Position numbers and translations under genes: made by a program. From Escherichia virus TH43: a stretch of 64,000 bases of DNA. The notes below the pieces were generated by a model that was given only the letters and a program-made list of their open reading frames with translations, was not told the DNA's origin and searched no databases. Shown here piece after piece: positions 30,196 to 44,826 of this stretch. Numbering within the stretch: position 1 is the first letter of the stretch; every line of letters starts with the position of its first letter. The stretch is from sequence record MT446414.1; one strand, given 5' to 3'.

Positions 30196-31737
30196 TTAGT
30201 AGCTTTGATTCCATCTGTTAATATTTTCTTGATAAAGCGACGAGCTACCATAGCTAGCGTCATGCTTAGACCGACCTCTGTGTGTAACAGAACAAGCTGA
30301 ATATCGCATTGCGTCCATAAGGTCATCATGTTCTTTAATAATCTTACCAACTTTTCGATGGTAACGTGCTTTCTCTTCAAAGAGCTTAGCACATGCGGTA
30401 GTATTAAAGACTTTGAATCGACCTGACATCATACGCTCACGAATATCAGTAATTCCTGGCTCCACAAAGAAGTTCTTCTTACCATCCATTCCGATCTTGT
30501 TATGGAAGGTATCATTTTGTACGTTTACTCCTGCATTTTTATAGAATTGTGCTACAGAAGCACCACTTCCCTTCTCAATGTTATCAGCATCGTGAGGAAG
30601 AATGACTGGAATCCACTGACCACGACCATTAATAGCTGGTGCATGATACACTGGAGTAAAGCCACTTTCTTTATAGCAGTCATAAATGTAGATTGTATCG
30701 GTGTTAGCATCATAAGCTGACCATACAGCTGCCGTCGGGTGATCAATACCAATATCAATGGCACAAACACGTTTCCACGTATCAGGAATTTCAAACGGGT
30801 CACACTTAATTGAATCATCAGATACATCATAAATCAAACCTGAACCCAACAGAGGCATACCTTTAGAGCGCATCTCTAGCTGCCATGCCGGAATACCTTC
30901 TGTCATATCCTTTATGTCTTGGTCAGAGATGTGACCACCTAGGTCCACATGAGCATCCCACCAAGAAGCATTTTGGAAATATAGAGAACCTGTGTTCTCG
31001 TCCCCTTCACCTTTCATAAACTTGTCCACCAGCTCTGTTAATCCGTTCTCTGGTGTAGCTGTAATCGTAACTAAACCTTTAGTAGTAAGTGTACGTGTTA
31101 CGCACTGAGAGAAGATTGCCATACTTTCATAAGGATCTTCTTCGTCCAGCCAAATGTAATCCACTGTAGCACCCATTAATGTGTGTTCACCCTGTTGGGT
31201 AGAACGAAACTCTAACGTACTCAGCCCATCAAATTCGCCTCTAGCATTTTGGTGCTTGATTTGTACGATCTGTAATTTGTTTCCATCTCGTTCTATCGTG
31301 TCAATGACGATAGCGTCACGAGGAATAACACCCGTCCCTAATAAGTTTGTATCCTTTCCGATAGGTGTTCCAAATAATTCCTTTTGCAATACCTTTCTTG
31401 TAGAGTCCCCTGTAATCCCTACTGCCCAAGCCAATATGGGTCGATTAAATCTATATCCTGTCCACCAAGTTGGGTAGCGACCTGTGACATGACAAGCAAA
31501 CTCGTATGCCTCGCTGTAAGATTTACCAACACGGTTAGCTGCACACAGGAATCTAAAGCGATGCTTCAGTCCCGCTGCATAAAAGTCTTTCTGAAACTGG
31601 TATGCTTTAAAAGAAAGAATCCTATTATACTTTCTCCATTGATCTCTATCCTTCAGCATTTCAAGCAGAGCCTTCTTCTCCTCTACCGATAGCTTGTCTC
31701 CAGTTAGTGCTTCATATATTTCTTTATCTAATGACAT
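30196..31737 (-). CDS. terminase large subunit
   Basis: N-terminal ATPase region (CAANRVGKS Walker A-like, WLDEED Walker B-like) and C-terminal nuclease-like region with conserved acidic residues. Confidence 0.75.
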   Translation of the reverse strand: MSLDKEIYEALTGDKLSVEEKKALLEMLKDRDQWRKYNRILSFKAYQFQKDFYAAGLKHRFRFLCAANRVGKSYSEAYEFACHVTGRYPTWWTGYRFNRPILAWAVGITGDSTRKVLQKELFGTPIGKDTNLLGTGVIPRDAIVIDTIERDGNKLQIVQIKHQNARGEFDGLSTLEFRSTQQGEHTLMGATVDYIWLDEEDPYESMAIFSQCVTRTLTTKGLVTITATPENGLTELVDKFMKGEGDENTGSLYFQNASWWDAHVDLGGHISDQDIKDMTEGIPAWQLEMRSKGMPLLGSGLIYDVSDDSIKCDPFEIPDTWKRVCAIDIGIDHPTAAVWSAYDANTDTIYIYDCYKESGFTPVYHAPAINGRGQWIPVILPHDADNIEKGSGASVAQFYKNAGVNVQNDTFHNKIGMDGKKNFFVEPGITDIRERMMSGRFKVFNTTACAKLFEEKARYHRKVGKIIKEHDDLMDAMRYSACSVTHRGRSKHDASYGSSSLYQENINRWNQSY

Positions 31738-34524: not shown

Positions 34525-34552
34525 TTGACATGTTTTTCCTTTAATATATAGT
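34525..34552 (+). promoter_or_regulatory. sigma70-like promoter upstream of the first early gene
   Basis: TTGACA, 16-nt spacer, TATAGT, about 40 nt upstream of ATG 34591. Confidence 0.5.
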
Positions 34553-36073: not shown

Positions 36074-36400
36074 ATGAAAATTAAATTAGCTGTATGTGCT
36101 GCCTTGTTCGCTGTTTCTTCCGTGTCACATGCTGCCGTATTCAATGAGGCTAGCCTTGATGGTCTGCAATGCACCTATCTAATGGAAAATTACGACACTG
36201 GCAAAAAGTCTAGCAAGGTAGTATTGATTGACCTGAATGATTATGATCATCGTGTCGTTGATGGCAAGCATGCAATGCTAGTCAATGAAACTACAGGCAA
36301 GCAAATTACTATTGATCACATGATGCGGTCTAGCATGACGTTGTTCGATGAGTCGATGAACGAAATAGCATCAGGTAACGGCACTTGCACCAATCCGTAA
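36074..36400 (+). CDS. secreted protein (N-terminal signal peptide)
   Basis: MKIKLAVCAALFAVSSVSHA is a signal-peptide-like N-terminus; start moved to ATG 36074. Confidence 0.5.
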   Translation: MKIKLAVCAALFAVSSVSHAAVFNEASLDGLQCTYLMENYDTGKKSSKVVLIDLNDYDHRVVDGKHAMLVNETTGKQITIDHMMRSSMTLFDESMNEIASGNGTCTNP

Positions 36401-36419
36401 CCAACCCGTAAGACTCTCT

Positions 36420-36446
36420 AAGCGCCCTTTTGAGGCGCTTTTTTCA
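36420..36446 (+). terminator. intrinsic terminator
   Basis: AGCGCC cttttga GGCGCT stem-loop followed by TTTTTC. Confidence 0.6.
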
Positions 36447-36694
36447 TTTCTAAGGTGATTGCACATCTTGCCCCTGTTTATCTCGTTAGAACGCCTCCTA
36501 CATGCCTAGCTTTTGATTATAATGCTTGTTTTCTTCCTCCCTTGATGTTATTCGTGCGCGTGCTCATCTATACCTAAAAGAAAGTGAAATTATTTTAGAA
36601 AAAGGTATTGCTTTCTTTGCTTGATAGATTTATATTTGAATCTCAGGTTTAGTTATGCAGTCGGTAGCAAGCCTGATAGGCTAGACTTTTAGCC

Positions 36695-36708
36695 TTGCTC
36701 TTTAAAAA
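36695..36708 (+). promoter_or_regulatory. boxA-like element (copy 0)
   Basis: TTGCTCTTTAAAAA compared with rrn boxA GCTCTTTAACAA; preceded by hairpin GCCTgatAGGC. Confidence 0.45.
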
Positions 36709-36723
36709 CTCGATTAGTGTATC

Positions 36724-36750
36724 TTGATAAACTCCCAACCATGCCATAAT
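36724..36750 (+). promoter_or_regulatory. sigma70-like promoter (extended -10 type)
   Basis: TTGATA ... TGcCATAAT with short 15-nt spacer, upstream of ATG 36763. Confidence 0.35.
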
Positions 36751-36762
36751 GAGGATTTATCA

Positions 36763-36963
36763 ATGAACATCTATACCTTCTCAAGCAAAGACACACAAAT
36801 CACTTGCACTAGCATTAACGTTACTAACATGATTATGAGAATAGTCGGTAGTACATTACAGCAAGCGAAAGAAATGGTAGCCGATGCCGATAAAGGTAAA
36901 GCTATCGCGGTCTTATCGCTGGTAAGTACAGATAAAGATTTAACCTTTAAACGTATGAACTAG
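36763..36963 (+). CDS. hypothetical protein, 66 aa
   Basis: ATG with GAGGA upstream; track ORF 36724 trimmed. Confidence 0.35.
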   Translation: MNIYTFSSKDTQITCTSINVTNMIMRIVGSTLQQAKEMVADADKGKAIAVLSLVSTDKDLTFKRMN

Positions 36964-37030
36964 GGTAAGGTAAGGTTAGCGGCCTTAATGGTCGCTAGTT
37001 TATCAAGATGCATTAATCGAAAAATAGTTG

Positions 37031-37058
37031 TTGACACGTCGAATCGTTATGATAAGAT
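37031..37058 (+). promoter_or_regulatory. strong sigma70-like early promoter P1
   Basis: TTGACA (37031-37036), 16-nt spacer, TAAGAT (37053-37058); A-rich tract upstream. Confidence 0.6.
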
Positions 37059-37104
37059 GTGCACATGGTCAGCGATGACATAAAACATCCGGCACTAAGT
37101 GCCC

Positions 37105-37117
37105 CGCTCTTTAATAA
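37105..37117 (+). promoter_or_regulatory. boxA-like antitermination element (copy 1)
   Basis: CGCTCTTTAATAA, one mismatch to rrn boxA core; preceded by hairpin GGCACtaaGTGCC (37091-37103), i.e. rrn-like boxB-then-boxA order. Confidence 0.55.
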
Positions 37118-37192
37118 TTTATCGTCTTGCCCTTTCGCAAAGATTCACGCGAGATAAGGGAAGAGAACAAAAAGAAGACGATAAAAAAAGAG

Positions 37193-37220
37193 TTGACAAG
37201 GTGAAACGTTCTGATAGAAT
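37193..37220 (+). promoter_or_regulatory. strong sigma70-like early promoter P2
   Basis: TTGACA (37193-37198), 16-nt spacer, TAGAAT (37215-37220); A-rich tract upstream. Confidence 0.6.
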
Positions 37221-37243
37221 GTTCACTAAGCAGTAAGAAACAC

Positions 37244-37256
37244 CGCTCTTTAAAAA
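37244..37256 (+). promoter_or_regulatory. boxA-like antitermination element (copy 2)
   Basis: CGCTCTTTAAAAA about 25 nt downstream of the P2 -10. Confidence 0.5.
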
Positions 37257-37360
37257 TATGAATCAGAAAGTTAAGCGCAACCGCTTACAATCTTGTTAAT
37301 CCAATACGTGATTAACTGGTCATTCGAAAGAATAGACGAGAAAAAGATTTAAAAAAGTGG

Positions 37361-37389
37361 TTGACACGCTAAACAGGATGATTCATAAT
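37361..37389 (+). promoter_or_regulatory. strong sigma70-like early promoter P3
   Basis: TTGACA (37361-37366), 17-nt spacer, CATAAT (37384-37389); A-rich tract upstream. Confidence 0.6.
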
Positions 37390-37478
37390 GAGCACTCACT
37401 AAGCAAATCACCGCGAAGTGAACAGCGTAACAACGGCTAACAGTTGCATAGTGTGAGAAAGCACACTGATAGATTTAC

Positions 37479-37491
37479 CGCTCTTTAACAA
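37479..37491 (+). promoter_or_regulatory. boxA-like antitermination element (copy 3)
   Basis: CGCTCTTTAACAA followed by TTTA matches the rrn boxA consensus as recalled; preceded by hairpin GTGTGagaaagCACAC (37451-37466). Confidence 0.6.
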
Positions 37492-38305
37492 TTTAAACAT
37501 TCTCCTATATCGGTTGAATATGCTAGATGATAATAACCATCGGATAGCATACCAGATAAAACGGTGTAAGATTCTCTAAGTTATCAGAGTAAACAATCTC
37601 ACAATCCCTTACTGGAAACGTCACCACTGATAAGCAGATTCATCGAGTGCACGCAAAGACTTAAGCTAATCGCCCACGGTTAAGGGTAGCGGCGGTCATC
37701 GCTAACAAGGCGCTACGGTGAAAGAAGTTAATCAGGGTAGACAAGCCCGACTAATTAACGCTCAATTGAGAGCGGCGGGGAGTGGTTAAAAAGTGGCAAA
37801 TTGCTATTTAACAATAAGGTTTAGTGTGAACGTTTACGAAGTGAATGATTTGAGGCCACTATTGATGGCGTACATAATCAGTTTATGTAGTAAACCTGCT
37901 GAAAGATATAAAACGTCAATGTATCAGGCGGCTAATGACTCTTTCGCAATAACCTCCCGTAGTGGGCGATGGTTAGCGATTGAGAGTTGGTATAAAAGGA
38001 TAGGCGGGAGCGAAAGCAAAGTAAACGATATTACCGACGGTTACAATAAAGTAACTAATTAGAGTCGGGCACACTGCCTTATTGTGATGATTGATCATCG
38101 CTATCAGGTCGGCTTCGTTTATAGCGACTAATTAAAGATACCAGATGAAACATCACGGATAATGGGGCGGCTAGGTTAACTCCTGATAAGACCGCCCCAC
38201 TTACCTATAACTACTTAATAACGAGCGGTTATAGTTAAGTCATTGTGACTTGAATAGCTCATAGAGAGCGGCGCATAGAGCGTTTCAATTAAAAGGTAAA
38301 TTATC

Positions 38306-39208
38306 ATGGCTAAATCTTTCAATCTGGTTAACGAATCTGGCTTTAACGCACTGGCTAACAACATTCGTAGCAACAACGCAGCGATTAAGCAAGATGTTTC
38401 TAACTTCCTGTTAGGTCACTTACAGCACTTCCGTGCTAACGGTAAGAAGTTAGATGTATTGCAGGCGGCAGTAGACTTCCTGTTAACCGAGCGTTACCGT
38501 GATTTAGATGTGATTGCGGTTGCAATCTCTTTCCTCACTCCTATCAAGTACAACAGCGACGGGGCGAACGGTAAAAAGAAATGGATTAATCTGGAAGGTG
38601 AAGCGAAAGCGAAAGAAGACGCTAAGCCGGAACAAGTTAAGGCCAAAATGGAACAAAACCGTGCCCGCTGGTCTAACTCCTTTGAACGCTTTGCGAAAGG
38701 TGAAGACGTGCAGGTTGATAATCCAGCTTTCTATAAAGGTTGCAATGACAACGTGCCAGTTGCCAACCAAATCAACCAGAAAGTTGGCGAAAACTTCAGC
38801 CAGGATATTTACGCCTTAACTGATCGTTTGGCTGCAATCCGTATTGAAGCGGCCTTACTGGCTGATGAGCGCAACGGTGCATCTTCTGATAACACTATCG
38901 CATTGAGTGAAGAGGTAGGCAAAGTTAAGAAAACTTTTGATTCACTCCTTAAGAAAGTAACCGCATCAACTGTATCTATCAGCGATGACTATCTGATCAA
39001 TGCCTCAGCCAAAGAGCTTGAATCTCTGGATTCATACGCTGATGAAATGGAGAAAGCGATCAACGAAATGACTGAAAAATTGTCTAACCTTCGCGGTCGT
39101 ATCTCAAATGCTTCAACTGTCAAAGCGAACGAGAAGGCGGCGGCAGATGAGGAAGAAGTATTGCGCAAAGCTGCCGCAATCATGGCAGCACGCCAACAAG
39201 CTGCATAA
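38306..39208 (+). CDS. hypothetical early protein, 300 aa
   Basis: First substantial ORF downstream of the promoter/boxA block; ATG with AAAGG upstream; Ala/Lys/Glu-rich. Confidence 0.55.
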   Translation: MAKSFNLVNESGFNALANNIRSNNAAIKQDVSNFLLGHLQHFRANGKKLDVLQAAVDFLLTERYRDLDVIAVAISFLTPIKYNSDGANGKKKWINLEGEAKAKEDAKPEQVKAKMEQNRARWSNSFERFAKGEDVQVDNPAFYKGCNDNVPVANQINQKVGENFSQDIYALTDRLAAIRIEAALLADERNGASSDNTIALSEEVGKVKKTFDSLLKKVTASTVSISDDYLINASAKELESLDSYADEMEKAINEMTEKLSNLRGRISNASTVKANEKAAADEEEVLRKAAAIMAARQQAA

Positions 39209-39228
39209 CTTACAATAAAGAACATATA

Positions 39229-39262
39229 AGGCGCTATTCGAAAGGGTAGCGCCTTTTCTTTT
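39229..39262 (+). terminator. intrinsic terminator
   Basis: AGGCGCTA ... TAGCGCC stem with 10-nt loop followed by TTTTCTTTT. Confidence 0.6.
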
Positions 39263-40514: not shown

Positions 40515-40540
40515 GACGCTCTTCTTGAGCGTCTTTGTGT
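40515..40540 (+). terminator. intrinsic terminator 1 of a cluster
   Basis: GACGCTC ttctt GAGCGTC followed by TTTGTGT. Confidence 0.5.
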
Positions 40541-40542
40541 CT

Positions 40543-40564
40543 GCCGCCTTTGTGCGGCTTTTTG
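40543..40564 (+). terminator. intrinsic terminator 2 of a cluster
   Basis: GCCGC ctttgt GCGGC followed by TTTTTG. Confidence 0.5.
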
Positions 40565-40713
40565 CGTAGCTAGTGATGCCTAAAGGGAAAGCCCTTTGTG
40601 AATCATTGGCATGGTTCAATCCCTATTGGATGGTCATTTGACCGGGCCTTTAACGAGGCCGCTTTTTTAAGAGTCTTTACGAGGATTCTTAAATGAGTGA
40701 GGTCATGTTCACT

Positions 40714-40741
40714 CTTTCAGGTCGCCCCGTCTTCGGATGGG
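40714..40741 (+). terminator. intrinsic terminator 3 (strongest)
   Basis: GCCCC gtcttcggat GGGGC followed by TTTTTTAT. Confidence 0.65.
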
Positions 40742-44337: not shown

Positions 44338-44760
44338 TTGAAGATAGAGTTAGAATACCCCTTCGTTAATGACTGGCGATTGGGCTACTTAAGAACAAGC
44401 AGAGACGGTAGGAAGCGTGTTGATTTGTATAATACCGACACGGAGAGGACAACCATTTCTTACGCAAGATATTTAATGTCTTGTCACATAGGCAGGTACC
44501 TAACTGAAGACGAGGAGGTTGATCATATTGACAGAAATAAAACTAATGATGACATATCTAATCTTCAGATACTTTCCATAGAAAATCACAGAAAGAAGTC
44601 AACATTAGAAGCAACTACTGGAAGAACAATGATTTCAGTTGTTTGCTCTTATTGTGGAAGATCTTTTGAAAAAGAAAAGCGAAATGTTAAATATGCAAAT
44701 TCTTTTTGTAACAGATCATGTGCAGGTAAGTATAACGGTTTCAAATCTATCGGGGCGTAG
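44338..44760 (+). CDS. HNH homing endonuclease
   Basis: EVDHIDRNKTNDDISNLQILSIENHRKK is a classic HNH core, plus C-terminal CxxC ... C...C; TTG start with GGAGGGG upstream. Confidence 0.65.
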   Translation: MKIELEYPFVNDWRLGYLRTSRDGRKRVDLYNTDTERTTISYARYLMSCHIGRYLTEDEEVDHIDRNKTNDDISNLQILSIENHRKKSTLEATTGRTMISVVCSYCGRSFEKEKRNVKYANSFCNRSCAGKYNGFKSIGA

Positions 44761-44826
44761 TCTAGTGGAACAGGCAGCGAGCTTCTAACTCGCCTTACGA
44801 GGGTTCGAATCCTTCCGTCCCGACCA
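44751..44826 (+). tRNA. tRNA-Arg (anticodon UCU)
   Basis: Manual cloverleaf: acceptor CGGGGCG/CGTCCCG, D-arm GTCT-AGTGGAAC-AGGC, anticodon arm GCGAG-CTTCTAA-CTCGC, T-arm GAGGG-TTCGAAT-CCTTC, discriminator A, encoded CCA; 76 nt. Confidence 0.8.

Follow-up and report, generated by a model that had tools for sequence, protein, structure and literature searches.

What does a phage gain by repeating the antitermination signal of the host ribosomal RNA (rrn) operons behind each of its strongest promoters? This question is raised by a locus of Escherichia virus TH43 (sequence record MT446414.1), of which a stretch of 64,000 nucleotides (nt), hereafter the window, was analysed. The window derives from a phiEco32-like podophage of the subfamily Gordonclarkvirinae, whose early genes are oriented rightward, on the + strand in the orientation used here, and 1.34 kilobases (kb) without annotated genes separate a small open reading frame (ORF) of 66 amino acids (aa) from a 300-aa gene. 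Three strong sigma70 promoters lie in this gap, together with boxA copies and a long structured RNA. Our analysis, which draws on the sequence and on analogy with characterized systems, makes it probable that the locus is an rrn-like transcription unit, in which sigma70 promoters and hairpin/BoxA elements would load the host Nus complex onto the leader and early transcripts. A preliminary description of this DNA had also pointed to Nus-dependent antitermination, but overlooked the most direct cargo, namely the 815-nt untranslated structured RNA that follows the last boxA copy. For comparison we used the homologous region of 18 relatives spanning the subfamily; counts are given over the resulting 19 phages, which show 77-95% identity across this RNA.

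The window contains four boxA copies, numbered 0 to 3 and all on the + strand: TGCTCTTTAAAAA at 36696-36708, CGCTCTTTAATAA at 37105-37117, CGCTCTTTAAAAA at 37244-37256 and CGCTCTTTAACAA at 37479-37491, in agreement with the preliminary description, which had placed copies at 37105, 37244 and 37479 and a fourth at 36695. Copy 0 lies 55 nt before the ATG of the 66-aa ORF, and copy 3 abuts the 5' strand of the first long-range helix of the structured RNA. All four match the gamma-proteobacterial BoxA consensus, GYTCTTTAANA (PMC5725501), exactly and on the transcribed strand, from positions 36697, 37106, 37245 and 37480. The enrichment count that the preliminary description had proposed gave a clear result: GCTCTTTAA occurs four times in the 64 kb where 0.84 occurrences are expected, always on the + strand and within a single 800-nt stretch, and none of 100 shuffles reached this number. 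The consensus itself has five matches in the window compared to an expected 0.56, again a count reached in 0/100 shuffles; the fifth (GTTCTTTAATA, 30330-30340) is antisense within a minus-strand 513-aa late ORF and is probably due to chance. The four copies can be aligned without gaps to the boxA sequences of rrnB and of phage T7. The leader of Escherichia coli rrnB reads CTGCTCTTTAACAATTTATCAG (also given as GGCACTGCTCTTTAACAATTTATCAG), and copy 3 agrees with it at every base of GCTCTTTAACAATTTA, so that the match of copy 3 to the rrn boxA pointed out in the preliminary description was correct; in copy 1, the flank AATTTATCG extends the match to the rrnB leader. By every available sequence test, the identification of the four motifs as genuine BoxA elements is well supported.

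Copies 1, 2 and 3 lie 47, 24 and 90 nt, respectively, past the -10 hexamers of the three promoters P1, P2 and P3, whose start sites are predicted. These near-consensus promoters, with their A-rich upstream tracts, are indeed found at 37031, 37193 and 37361, as first described: P1 (37031-37058, + strand) is TTGACA-16-TAAGAT, P2 (37193-37220, + strand) is TTGACA-16-TAGAAT and P3 (37361-37389, + strand) is TTGACA-17-CATAAT, scoring 10/12, 11/12 and 11/12. P1 and P2 are TG-extended, and P3 has the UP-like sequence AAAAAGATTTAAAAAAGTGG; P1 is kept in Suseptimavirus-type relatives and P3 in 19/19 phages. A relaxed scan also yielded P0 (36608-36636, + strand; TTGCTT-17-TATATT, 8/12, with an A/T-rich upstream tract), an uncertain candidate for a weak promoter, which is a possible source of a transcript carrying copy 0. 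As an internal control, another near-consensus promoter, at 34525, is directly followed by an ORF and has no boxA. Equivalents of P1-P3 have already been published for phiEco32 and SU10 (PMC4281155), and the three promoters are therefore not new, even if the GenBank record of phage SU7 annotates none of them, nor any of the boxA copies.

Hairpins stand upstream of copies 0, 1 and 3, with none upstream of copy 2. Directly before copy 0 lies AGGCTAgactTTTAGCCT (36678-36695, + strand), which is kept in close relatives, and GGCACtaaGTGCC (37091-37103, + strand) occupies a boxB-like position 1 nt before copy 1. The hairpin preceding copy 3, H2 (37450-37467, + strand; GTGTGagaaagCACAC at 37451-37466), is also boxB-like and folds as AGTGTG-AGAAAG-CACACT with a GAAA-type loop; its GTGTG/CACAC stem becomes ACGTG/CACGT, GCGTG/CACGC, AGGTG/CACCT or AAGTG/CACTT in relatives, which amounts to compensatory changes in 3/6 pairs. 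Another leader hairpin, H1 (37431-37446, + strand), has a CAAC/GTTG stem that is CCAC/GTGG in three phages, and copy 2 is followed by TAAGCGcaacCGCTTA (37272-37287, + strand), with a conserved AAGC/GCTT stem and a variable loop. Hairpins with GAAA-type loops precede many copies across the relatives, as in GGCAAgaaaTTGCC-CC-boxA. The hairpins noticed in the preliminary description ahead of copies 1 and 3 are thus present, and the order of hairpin then boxA is that of the rrn leaders.

Each of the 19 phages has three to five exact sense-strand boxA copies, 825-2000 nt upstream of the 300-aa gene, and the relatives repeat the layout of a promoter followed by a boxA. Two boxA positions, near -1062 and -830, are universal, and the position homologous to copy 2 is occupied in 19/19 phages. 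The sense strands together contain 81 exact copies, one with a single mismatch and 27 with two mismatches, compared to none, none and 34 on the antisense strands, showing that the double-mismatch count represents background. Variation among the exact copies is confined to position 10, the N of the consensus (A in 46, C in 22 and T in 13), and the twelfth base is A in 80/81. Except at the free position of the consensus, neither copy 3 nor the sequence flanking it (GATTTACC...AATTTAAAC) varies among the 19 phages. In contrast, the upstream flanks of the copies fall into at least nine unrelated contexts, and the spacing between copies is irregular (110-400 nt). Judged by this pattern of conservation, the boxA motif is under very strong selection. 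A separate observation concerns the region from -2000 to -1100 of the 300-aa gene, where the promoter/boxA modules form a mosaic: one upstream flank is found with various downstream flanks, joined exactly at boxA, and the repeated 13-mer behaves as if it were a recombination junction between modules.

The 815 nt between copy 3 and the first gene form a conserved multi-domain structured RNA. The distance from copy 3 to the ATG is 833-842 nt in 19/19 phages and thus varies within 10 nt. Based on an unfitted MAFFT alignment, RNAalifold predicted 241 pairs; two invariant outer helices, involving sequence before the start codon or the start codon itself, were removed, leaving 229 pairs in 39 helices to be counted. 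Paired cells make up 99.2% of this structure, compared to 93.9% in shuffles, and changes on both sides are seen in 69 pairs, a number reached in 0/500 shuffles (31.3 +/- 3.0). Sliding the partners by 1-3 columns reduces the both-sides changes to 5-11, and the covariation score of 0.239 compares to 0.04-0.07 in these slid controls. The excess of G-U over A-C cells (495 and 15, respectively) indicates that the structure belongs to the + strand RNA, and folding of the single sequence gives -238 kcal/mol (z = -5.8). Domain 1 (helices 3-16; 37492-37790, + strand) starts directly after copy 3 and is closed by a helix between 37492-37504 and 37778-37790. It is followed by the hairpin H17 (37791-37809, + strand), which contains an invariant, base-paired near-boxA, TGCTATTT, by domain 2 (helices 18-30; 37811-38085, + strand), closed by ACAATAAGGT and GCCTTATTGT, and by a 3' series of eight hairpins (helices 31-39; 38086-38284, + strand). 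The near-boxA was considered as a fifth boxA at 37803 (GCTATTTAACA) and rejected: it is base-paired in H17 and in the closing helix of domain 2, and the only phage with a C-to-T change in it carries the compensating G-to-A change opposite. It is thus a structural part of the RNA and not a boxA.

A coding function of the leader was also rejected, 82/97 indels relative to the window being of 1 nt; an 89-aa ORF at 37793 is interrupted in the majority of relatives, and the only stop-free stretch common to them spans 40 codons, covering copy 3 and covariation-supported helices. In most relatives, the RNA is better conserved (84-94%) than the adjacent gene (75-77%). The pattern is reversed in PAS59 and TH34, where the leader RNA is 77% identical to that of the window and the 300-aa gene 89-93%, showing that the RNA and the gene have been exchanged independently. 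The leader gave no match in Rfam 15 at gathering thresholds, and a permissive Rfam scan of 36400-38400 returned chance-level matches only (E of about 0.7 or more, far below gathering scores). An origin in the host, or mimicry of rRNA at the sequence level, was rejected, as a search of 5,426 E. coli genomes gave no match with E allowed to rise to 10. Occurrence of the RNA is limited to the Gordonclarkvirinae and close metagenomic relatives: five loci were obtained from IMG/VR, and of 28 matches in a metagenome scan, seven are true relatives with 83-88% identity and the remainder are due to chance. We found no prior description of this RNA, which would rank with the largest structured RNAs conserved in a virulent coliphage.

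How could these elements work together? The following steps are modelled on the established biology of rrn operons, T7 and CRISPR leaders. Host sigma70 RNA polymerase would start at the tandem promoters P1-P3, and the RNA made from each predicted start would present a perfect BoxA, a hairpin or both within about 20-90 nt. BoxA would be bound by the host NusB-NusE(S10) complex, and NusA, NusG and SuhB would join to form an rrn-type elongation complex. With one BoxA per promoter, and extra copies in relatives, every transcript would be modified, whichever promoter had fired. The complex would then resist Rho, which could otherwise be expected to terminate a transcript that stays untranslated over the 0.9-1.25 kb between P1-P3 and the first start codon, much as BoxA shields long untranslated CRISPR transcripts from Rho (PMC7665894). 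It would also elongate fast, and the polymerase-tethered BoxA may help long-range helices to form, in line with the ability of rrn elongation complexes to chaperone long-range RNA pairing (PMC8632103). The partner of the helix strand beside copy 3 emerges about 290 nt later, and the modelled location of copy 3 next to this long-range helix fits the tethering picture, although it does not prove it. Finally, the modified polymerase is probably more processive into the early operon, with less termination at 39228 and at later hairpins. It is possible, although we are hesitant to favour it, that the RNA is itself the product of the unit, that host polymerase loaded with Nus factors and SuhB makes it abundantly during the first minutes after infection, and that it acts in its own right; it might, for example, be a host-takeover or anti-defence effector or a scaffold for ribonucleoproteins, beyond a mere 5' untranslated region (UTR).

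A number of observations weigh against an rrn-like unit. Sequence inspection revealed no GT-rich boxC after copies 1-3, a TAGTGT being present downstream of copy 0 alone, as in phage SP6; boxC is not known to be required for antitermination. No strong Rho-loading signature was found in the leader, where G exceeds C overall and a mild excess of C over G is limited to a patch at 37536-37610; G-rich and heavily structured, the leader is not an obvious Rho substrate, and its protection from Rho is thus an argument from principle. Copy 3 is unpaired in the covariation-supported structure, but an RNAalifold alternative pairs it with TAATGAGC, an invariant sequence in the -10 region of P3; this pairing would be open only to transcripts from P1 and P2, and covariation speaks neither for nor against it. 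Lastly, a distant relative, Salmonella phage 7-11, has at its right end a non-coding leader of about 1 kb before the first early gene (gp151), which appears structured (fold z = -3.6 over 691 nt). The right-end 5.9 kb of 7-11 contains no boxA and shows no similarity to the leader RNA, nor is there homology between the first early proteins of 7-11 and of the window; a long early leader is therefore possible without boxA.

The alternative that survives best, and one compatible with the rrn-like unit, is that the main job of boxA is the read-through of intrinsic terminators (39228, 40515-40724, 42947 and later), with the leader RNA being incidental. We regard this as a real possibility, with a somewhat less than even chance of being the primary role. 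The first intrinsic-terminator-like hairpin met by transcripts from P1-P3, at 39228-39255 on the + strand, has a 12-pair stem followed by TTCTTTT, and others follow at 40515-40724, 42537, 42947 and 48417. Between 34 and 64 kb, the only + strand promoters with a perfect TTGACA -35 are those at 34525, 37031, 37193 and 37361, and just a few weaker 10/12 matches are found beyond 37361. As a side observation, sigma70-like promoter matches on the + strand from 34001 to 64000 are below the shuffled level (16 vs 28 and 23 vs 37), and terminator-like hairpins reach roughly double the expected number (18 vs 8.6 and 26 vs 14). It is plausible that processive transcription is needed in the early region and, by analogy, that intrinsic terminators downstream are read through. 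The rrn complex containing SuhB does lower intrinsic termination in vitro, but such suppression has been shown in vitro only, the complex being mainly anti-Rho (PMC6614801). In T7, host transcription antiterminated at boxA reaches far enough to disturb later development (PMC3709561), and an antitermination strategy that "remains to be defined" has been postulated for 7-11, in a paper on transcription of 7-11 and phiEco32 in which boxA is unmentioned (PMC8948821). However, 7-11 itself, the subject of this postulate, lacks boxA, and read-through leaves unexplained why copy 3 lies at a fixed distance beside the 815-nt structured RNA in 19/19 phages. Furthermore, rrn operons themselves end at intrinsic terminators, so that the rrn complex would not be a general intrinsic antiterminator in vivo. 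The terminator at 36420, which the preliminary description counted among the barriers to be crossed, is located upstream of P1-P3 and ends the preceding operon, transcribed from the promoter at 34525. Of that description's proposal of Nus antitermination, the identity of BoxA, the hairpin order and the plausible need for processive transcription stand, while its novelty and the emphasis of its mechanism do not.

A second alternative is that transcripts with three to five BoxA elements, made from very strong promoters on replicating genomes, act as decoys, soaking up NusB, NusE and SuhB to starve the host rrn operons and aid host shut-off. The number of copies per leader does exceed what one polymerase-loading event requires, and the near-consensus promoters with UP-like tracts would agree with such a role. 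This idea is nevertheless purely speculative and we think it unlikely: one or two copies suffice for T7, T3 and SP6, the extra copies each follow a promoter of their own and are already explained by loading, and phiEco32 owns a dedicated sigma70 inhibitor, gp79 (PMC8948821). Still less probable is a repressive BoxA of the kind found at E. coli suhB, where Nus factors near the start codon prevent translation and favour termination by Rho; in the phage, it would lower early expression. This repression is documented and effective from more than 50 nt (PMC5725501), and chiefly concerns copy 0 on account of its proximity to an ATG (55 nt); copies 1-3, however, lie 0.8-1.2 kb from the next start codon, and a virulent phage would have little reason to place a repressor site after the strongest promoters that its genome possesses. 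That the motif is a DNA-level element, a protein-binding repeat (iteron, Fis- or IHF-like) or a recombination microhomology resembling BoxA by coincidence, is very improbable in spite of the modules recombined exactly at the motif and of iterons also being direct repeats in a single orientation, given the 81 copies that agree with the host consensus at 11/11 positions and vary solely at its free one, the irregular spacing of 110-400 nt, the location of each window copy on the sense strand downstream of a predicted promoter, and the identical motif after the early promoters of the unrelated T7, T3 and SP6.

The rrn-like unit is set in a region (36400-38400) that is 95.6% identical to phage Bas88 and 92% to SU7, and that matches 97 phage records, with hosts that are all E. 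coli or Shigella. The 66-aa ORF upstream of P1 (36763-36963, + strand) has no family match, and its counterparts in SU7 and PAS59 carry the annotation 'hypothetical protein'. The 300-aa ORF (38306-39208, + strand), the first after the leader, belongs to phrog_13018, of unknown function, and has no Pfam match; a protein search found its homologues confined to the 97 Gordonclarkvirinae records, the same 97 as in the DNA search. Two side observations concern the surrounding early genes. A 118-aa early ORF at 36044-36400 matches phrog_13168 'terminase' and several relatives are annotated likewise, a label that is doubtful because of the size of the ORF and its position in an early operon. The only match in the window at Rfam 15 gathering thresholds is a tRNA-Arg with anticodon TCT (44751-44826), within the early gene region.

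The phiEco32-like phages are common in nature, used in phage therapy and poorly studied. An rrn-like unit would provide them with a concrete means by which host polymerase, starting at a handful of promoters, could traverse an extended early region, and our analysis brings to light an 815-nt structured RNA with strong covariation and no known family. Since the BASEL isolates Bas86-94 infect engineered E. coli K-12, nusB, nusE and suhB genetics are directly applicable. The compact promoter-boxA cassettes could also serve as parts for the expression of long untranslated RNAs in E. coli.

Among known systems, the nutL and nutR sites of phage lambda, acting with N, share with the phage unit a BoxA and hairpin RNA signal that recruits NusB/E to yield a termination-resistant polymerase. 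They differ in that lambda places boxA ahead of boxB, its boxA is deviant (CGCTCTTA) and N must be bound to boxB, whereas in the window the hairpin precedes a perfect rrn-type boxA, an arrangement unlike a lambda-type nut site. No N-like gene was identified, the neighbouring ORFs having no Pfam match, although no systematic search for N was made. Use of the BoxA consensus outside rRNA operons is also known from the leaders of CRISPR arrays, where it likewise keeps Rho from acting on a long RNA that is not translated (Stringer et al., 2020; PMC7665894), and from the suhB 5' UTR (PMC5725501); these are host loci with single copies, and that of suhB is repressive. As for the cargo, GOLLD, ROOL and other large RNAs in Rfam are of the same size class (about 0.6-0.8 kb), multi-domain and associated with phages or prophages, but differ in host range and phage type, and the leader RNA has no match to them in Rfam 15.

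A functional parallel among phages is provided by T7, T3 and SP6 (Autographiviridae). T7 has GACGCTCTTTAACAATC at nt 811-827 (boxA at nt 813), downstream of the host promoters A1, A2 and A3; T3 has an exact consensus boxA at nt 781 and SP6 has two, at nt 656 and 926. The T7 sequence is known as a 'boxA anti-termination element', and its mutation makes Gp2 dispensable (PMC3709561, citing Savalia 2010). These virulent podophages resemble the phage of the window in relying on host polymerase for their early genes, in having tandem strong host promoters (A1-A3) and an exact rrn-type BoxA ahead of the first early gene, and in needing no N-like phage protein. In contrast to the window, their BoxA is present once (T7, T3) or twice (SP6), after all of the promoters rather than one per promoter, and their leaders, of only about 0.2-0.4 kb, end in an RNase III site, with no 815-nt structured RNA. 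No homology is seen outside the motif, and the analogy is functional only. The two SP6 copies and copy 0 of the window do have a common flank, ccTT-GCTCTTTAAnA-N7/8-TAGTGT, which may represent a boxC-like GT element. The contrast with lambda N, drawn in the preliminary description as a separate solution, is not new, and the claim of a new strategy fails because T7, T3 and SP6 already place the same boxA after their early promoters. Our literature search found no link between boxA and phiEco32 or Kuravirus, the primary phiEco32 papers (Savalia 2008, Pavlova 2012) being outside this search, and the boxA copies of phiEco32-like phages appear to be unpublished. What appears to be new is the multi-copy layout with one boxA per promoter in an unrelated lineage, together with the 815-nt structured RNA that this layout feeds. 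The borrowing of the rrn antitermination signal, known from T7, thus now appears in another group of virulent podophages that is unrelated to the first.

A further likeness is to the E. coli rrn leader itself, with its boxB-boxA-boxC order, tandem P1/P2 promoters and complex of NusA/B/E/G, SuhB and S4. The phage unit differs from it by carrying three to five BoxA elements, one per promoter, by having no recognisable boxC, and by a cargo of 0.8 kb that is unrelated to rRNA and continues into a protein-coding gene without a terminator. It shares with the rrn leader the tandem strong promoters with A/T-rich upstream tracts, a hairpin followed by BoxA and the identity of BoxA over GCTCTTTAACAATTTA, and its cargo RNA, like that of the rrn operons, is long and untranslated, with several structured domains and closure by long-range helices.

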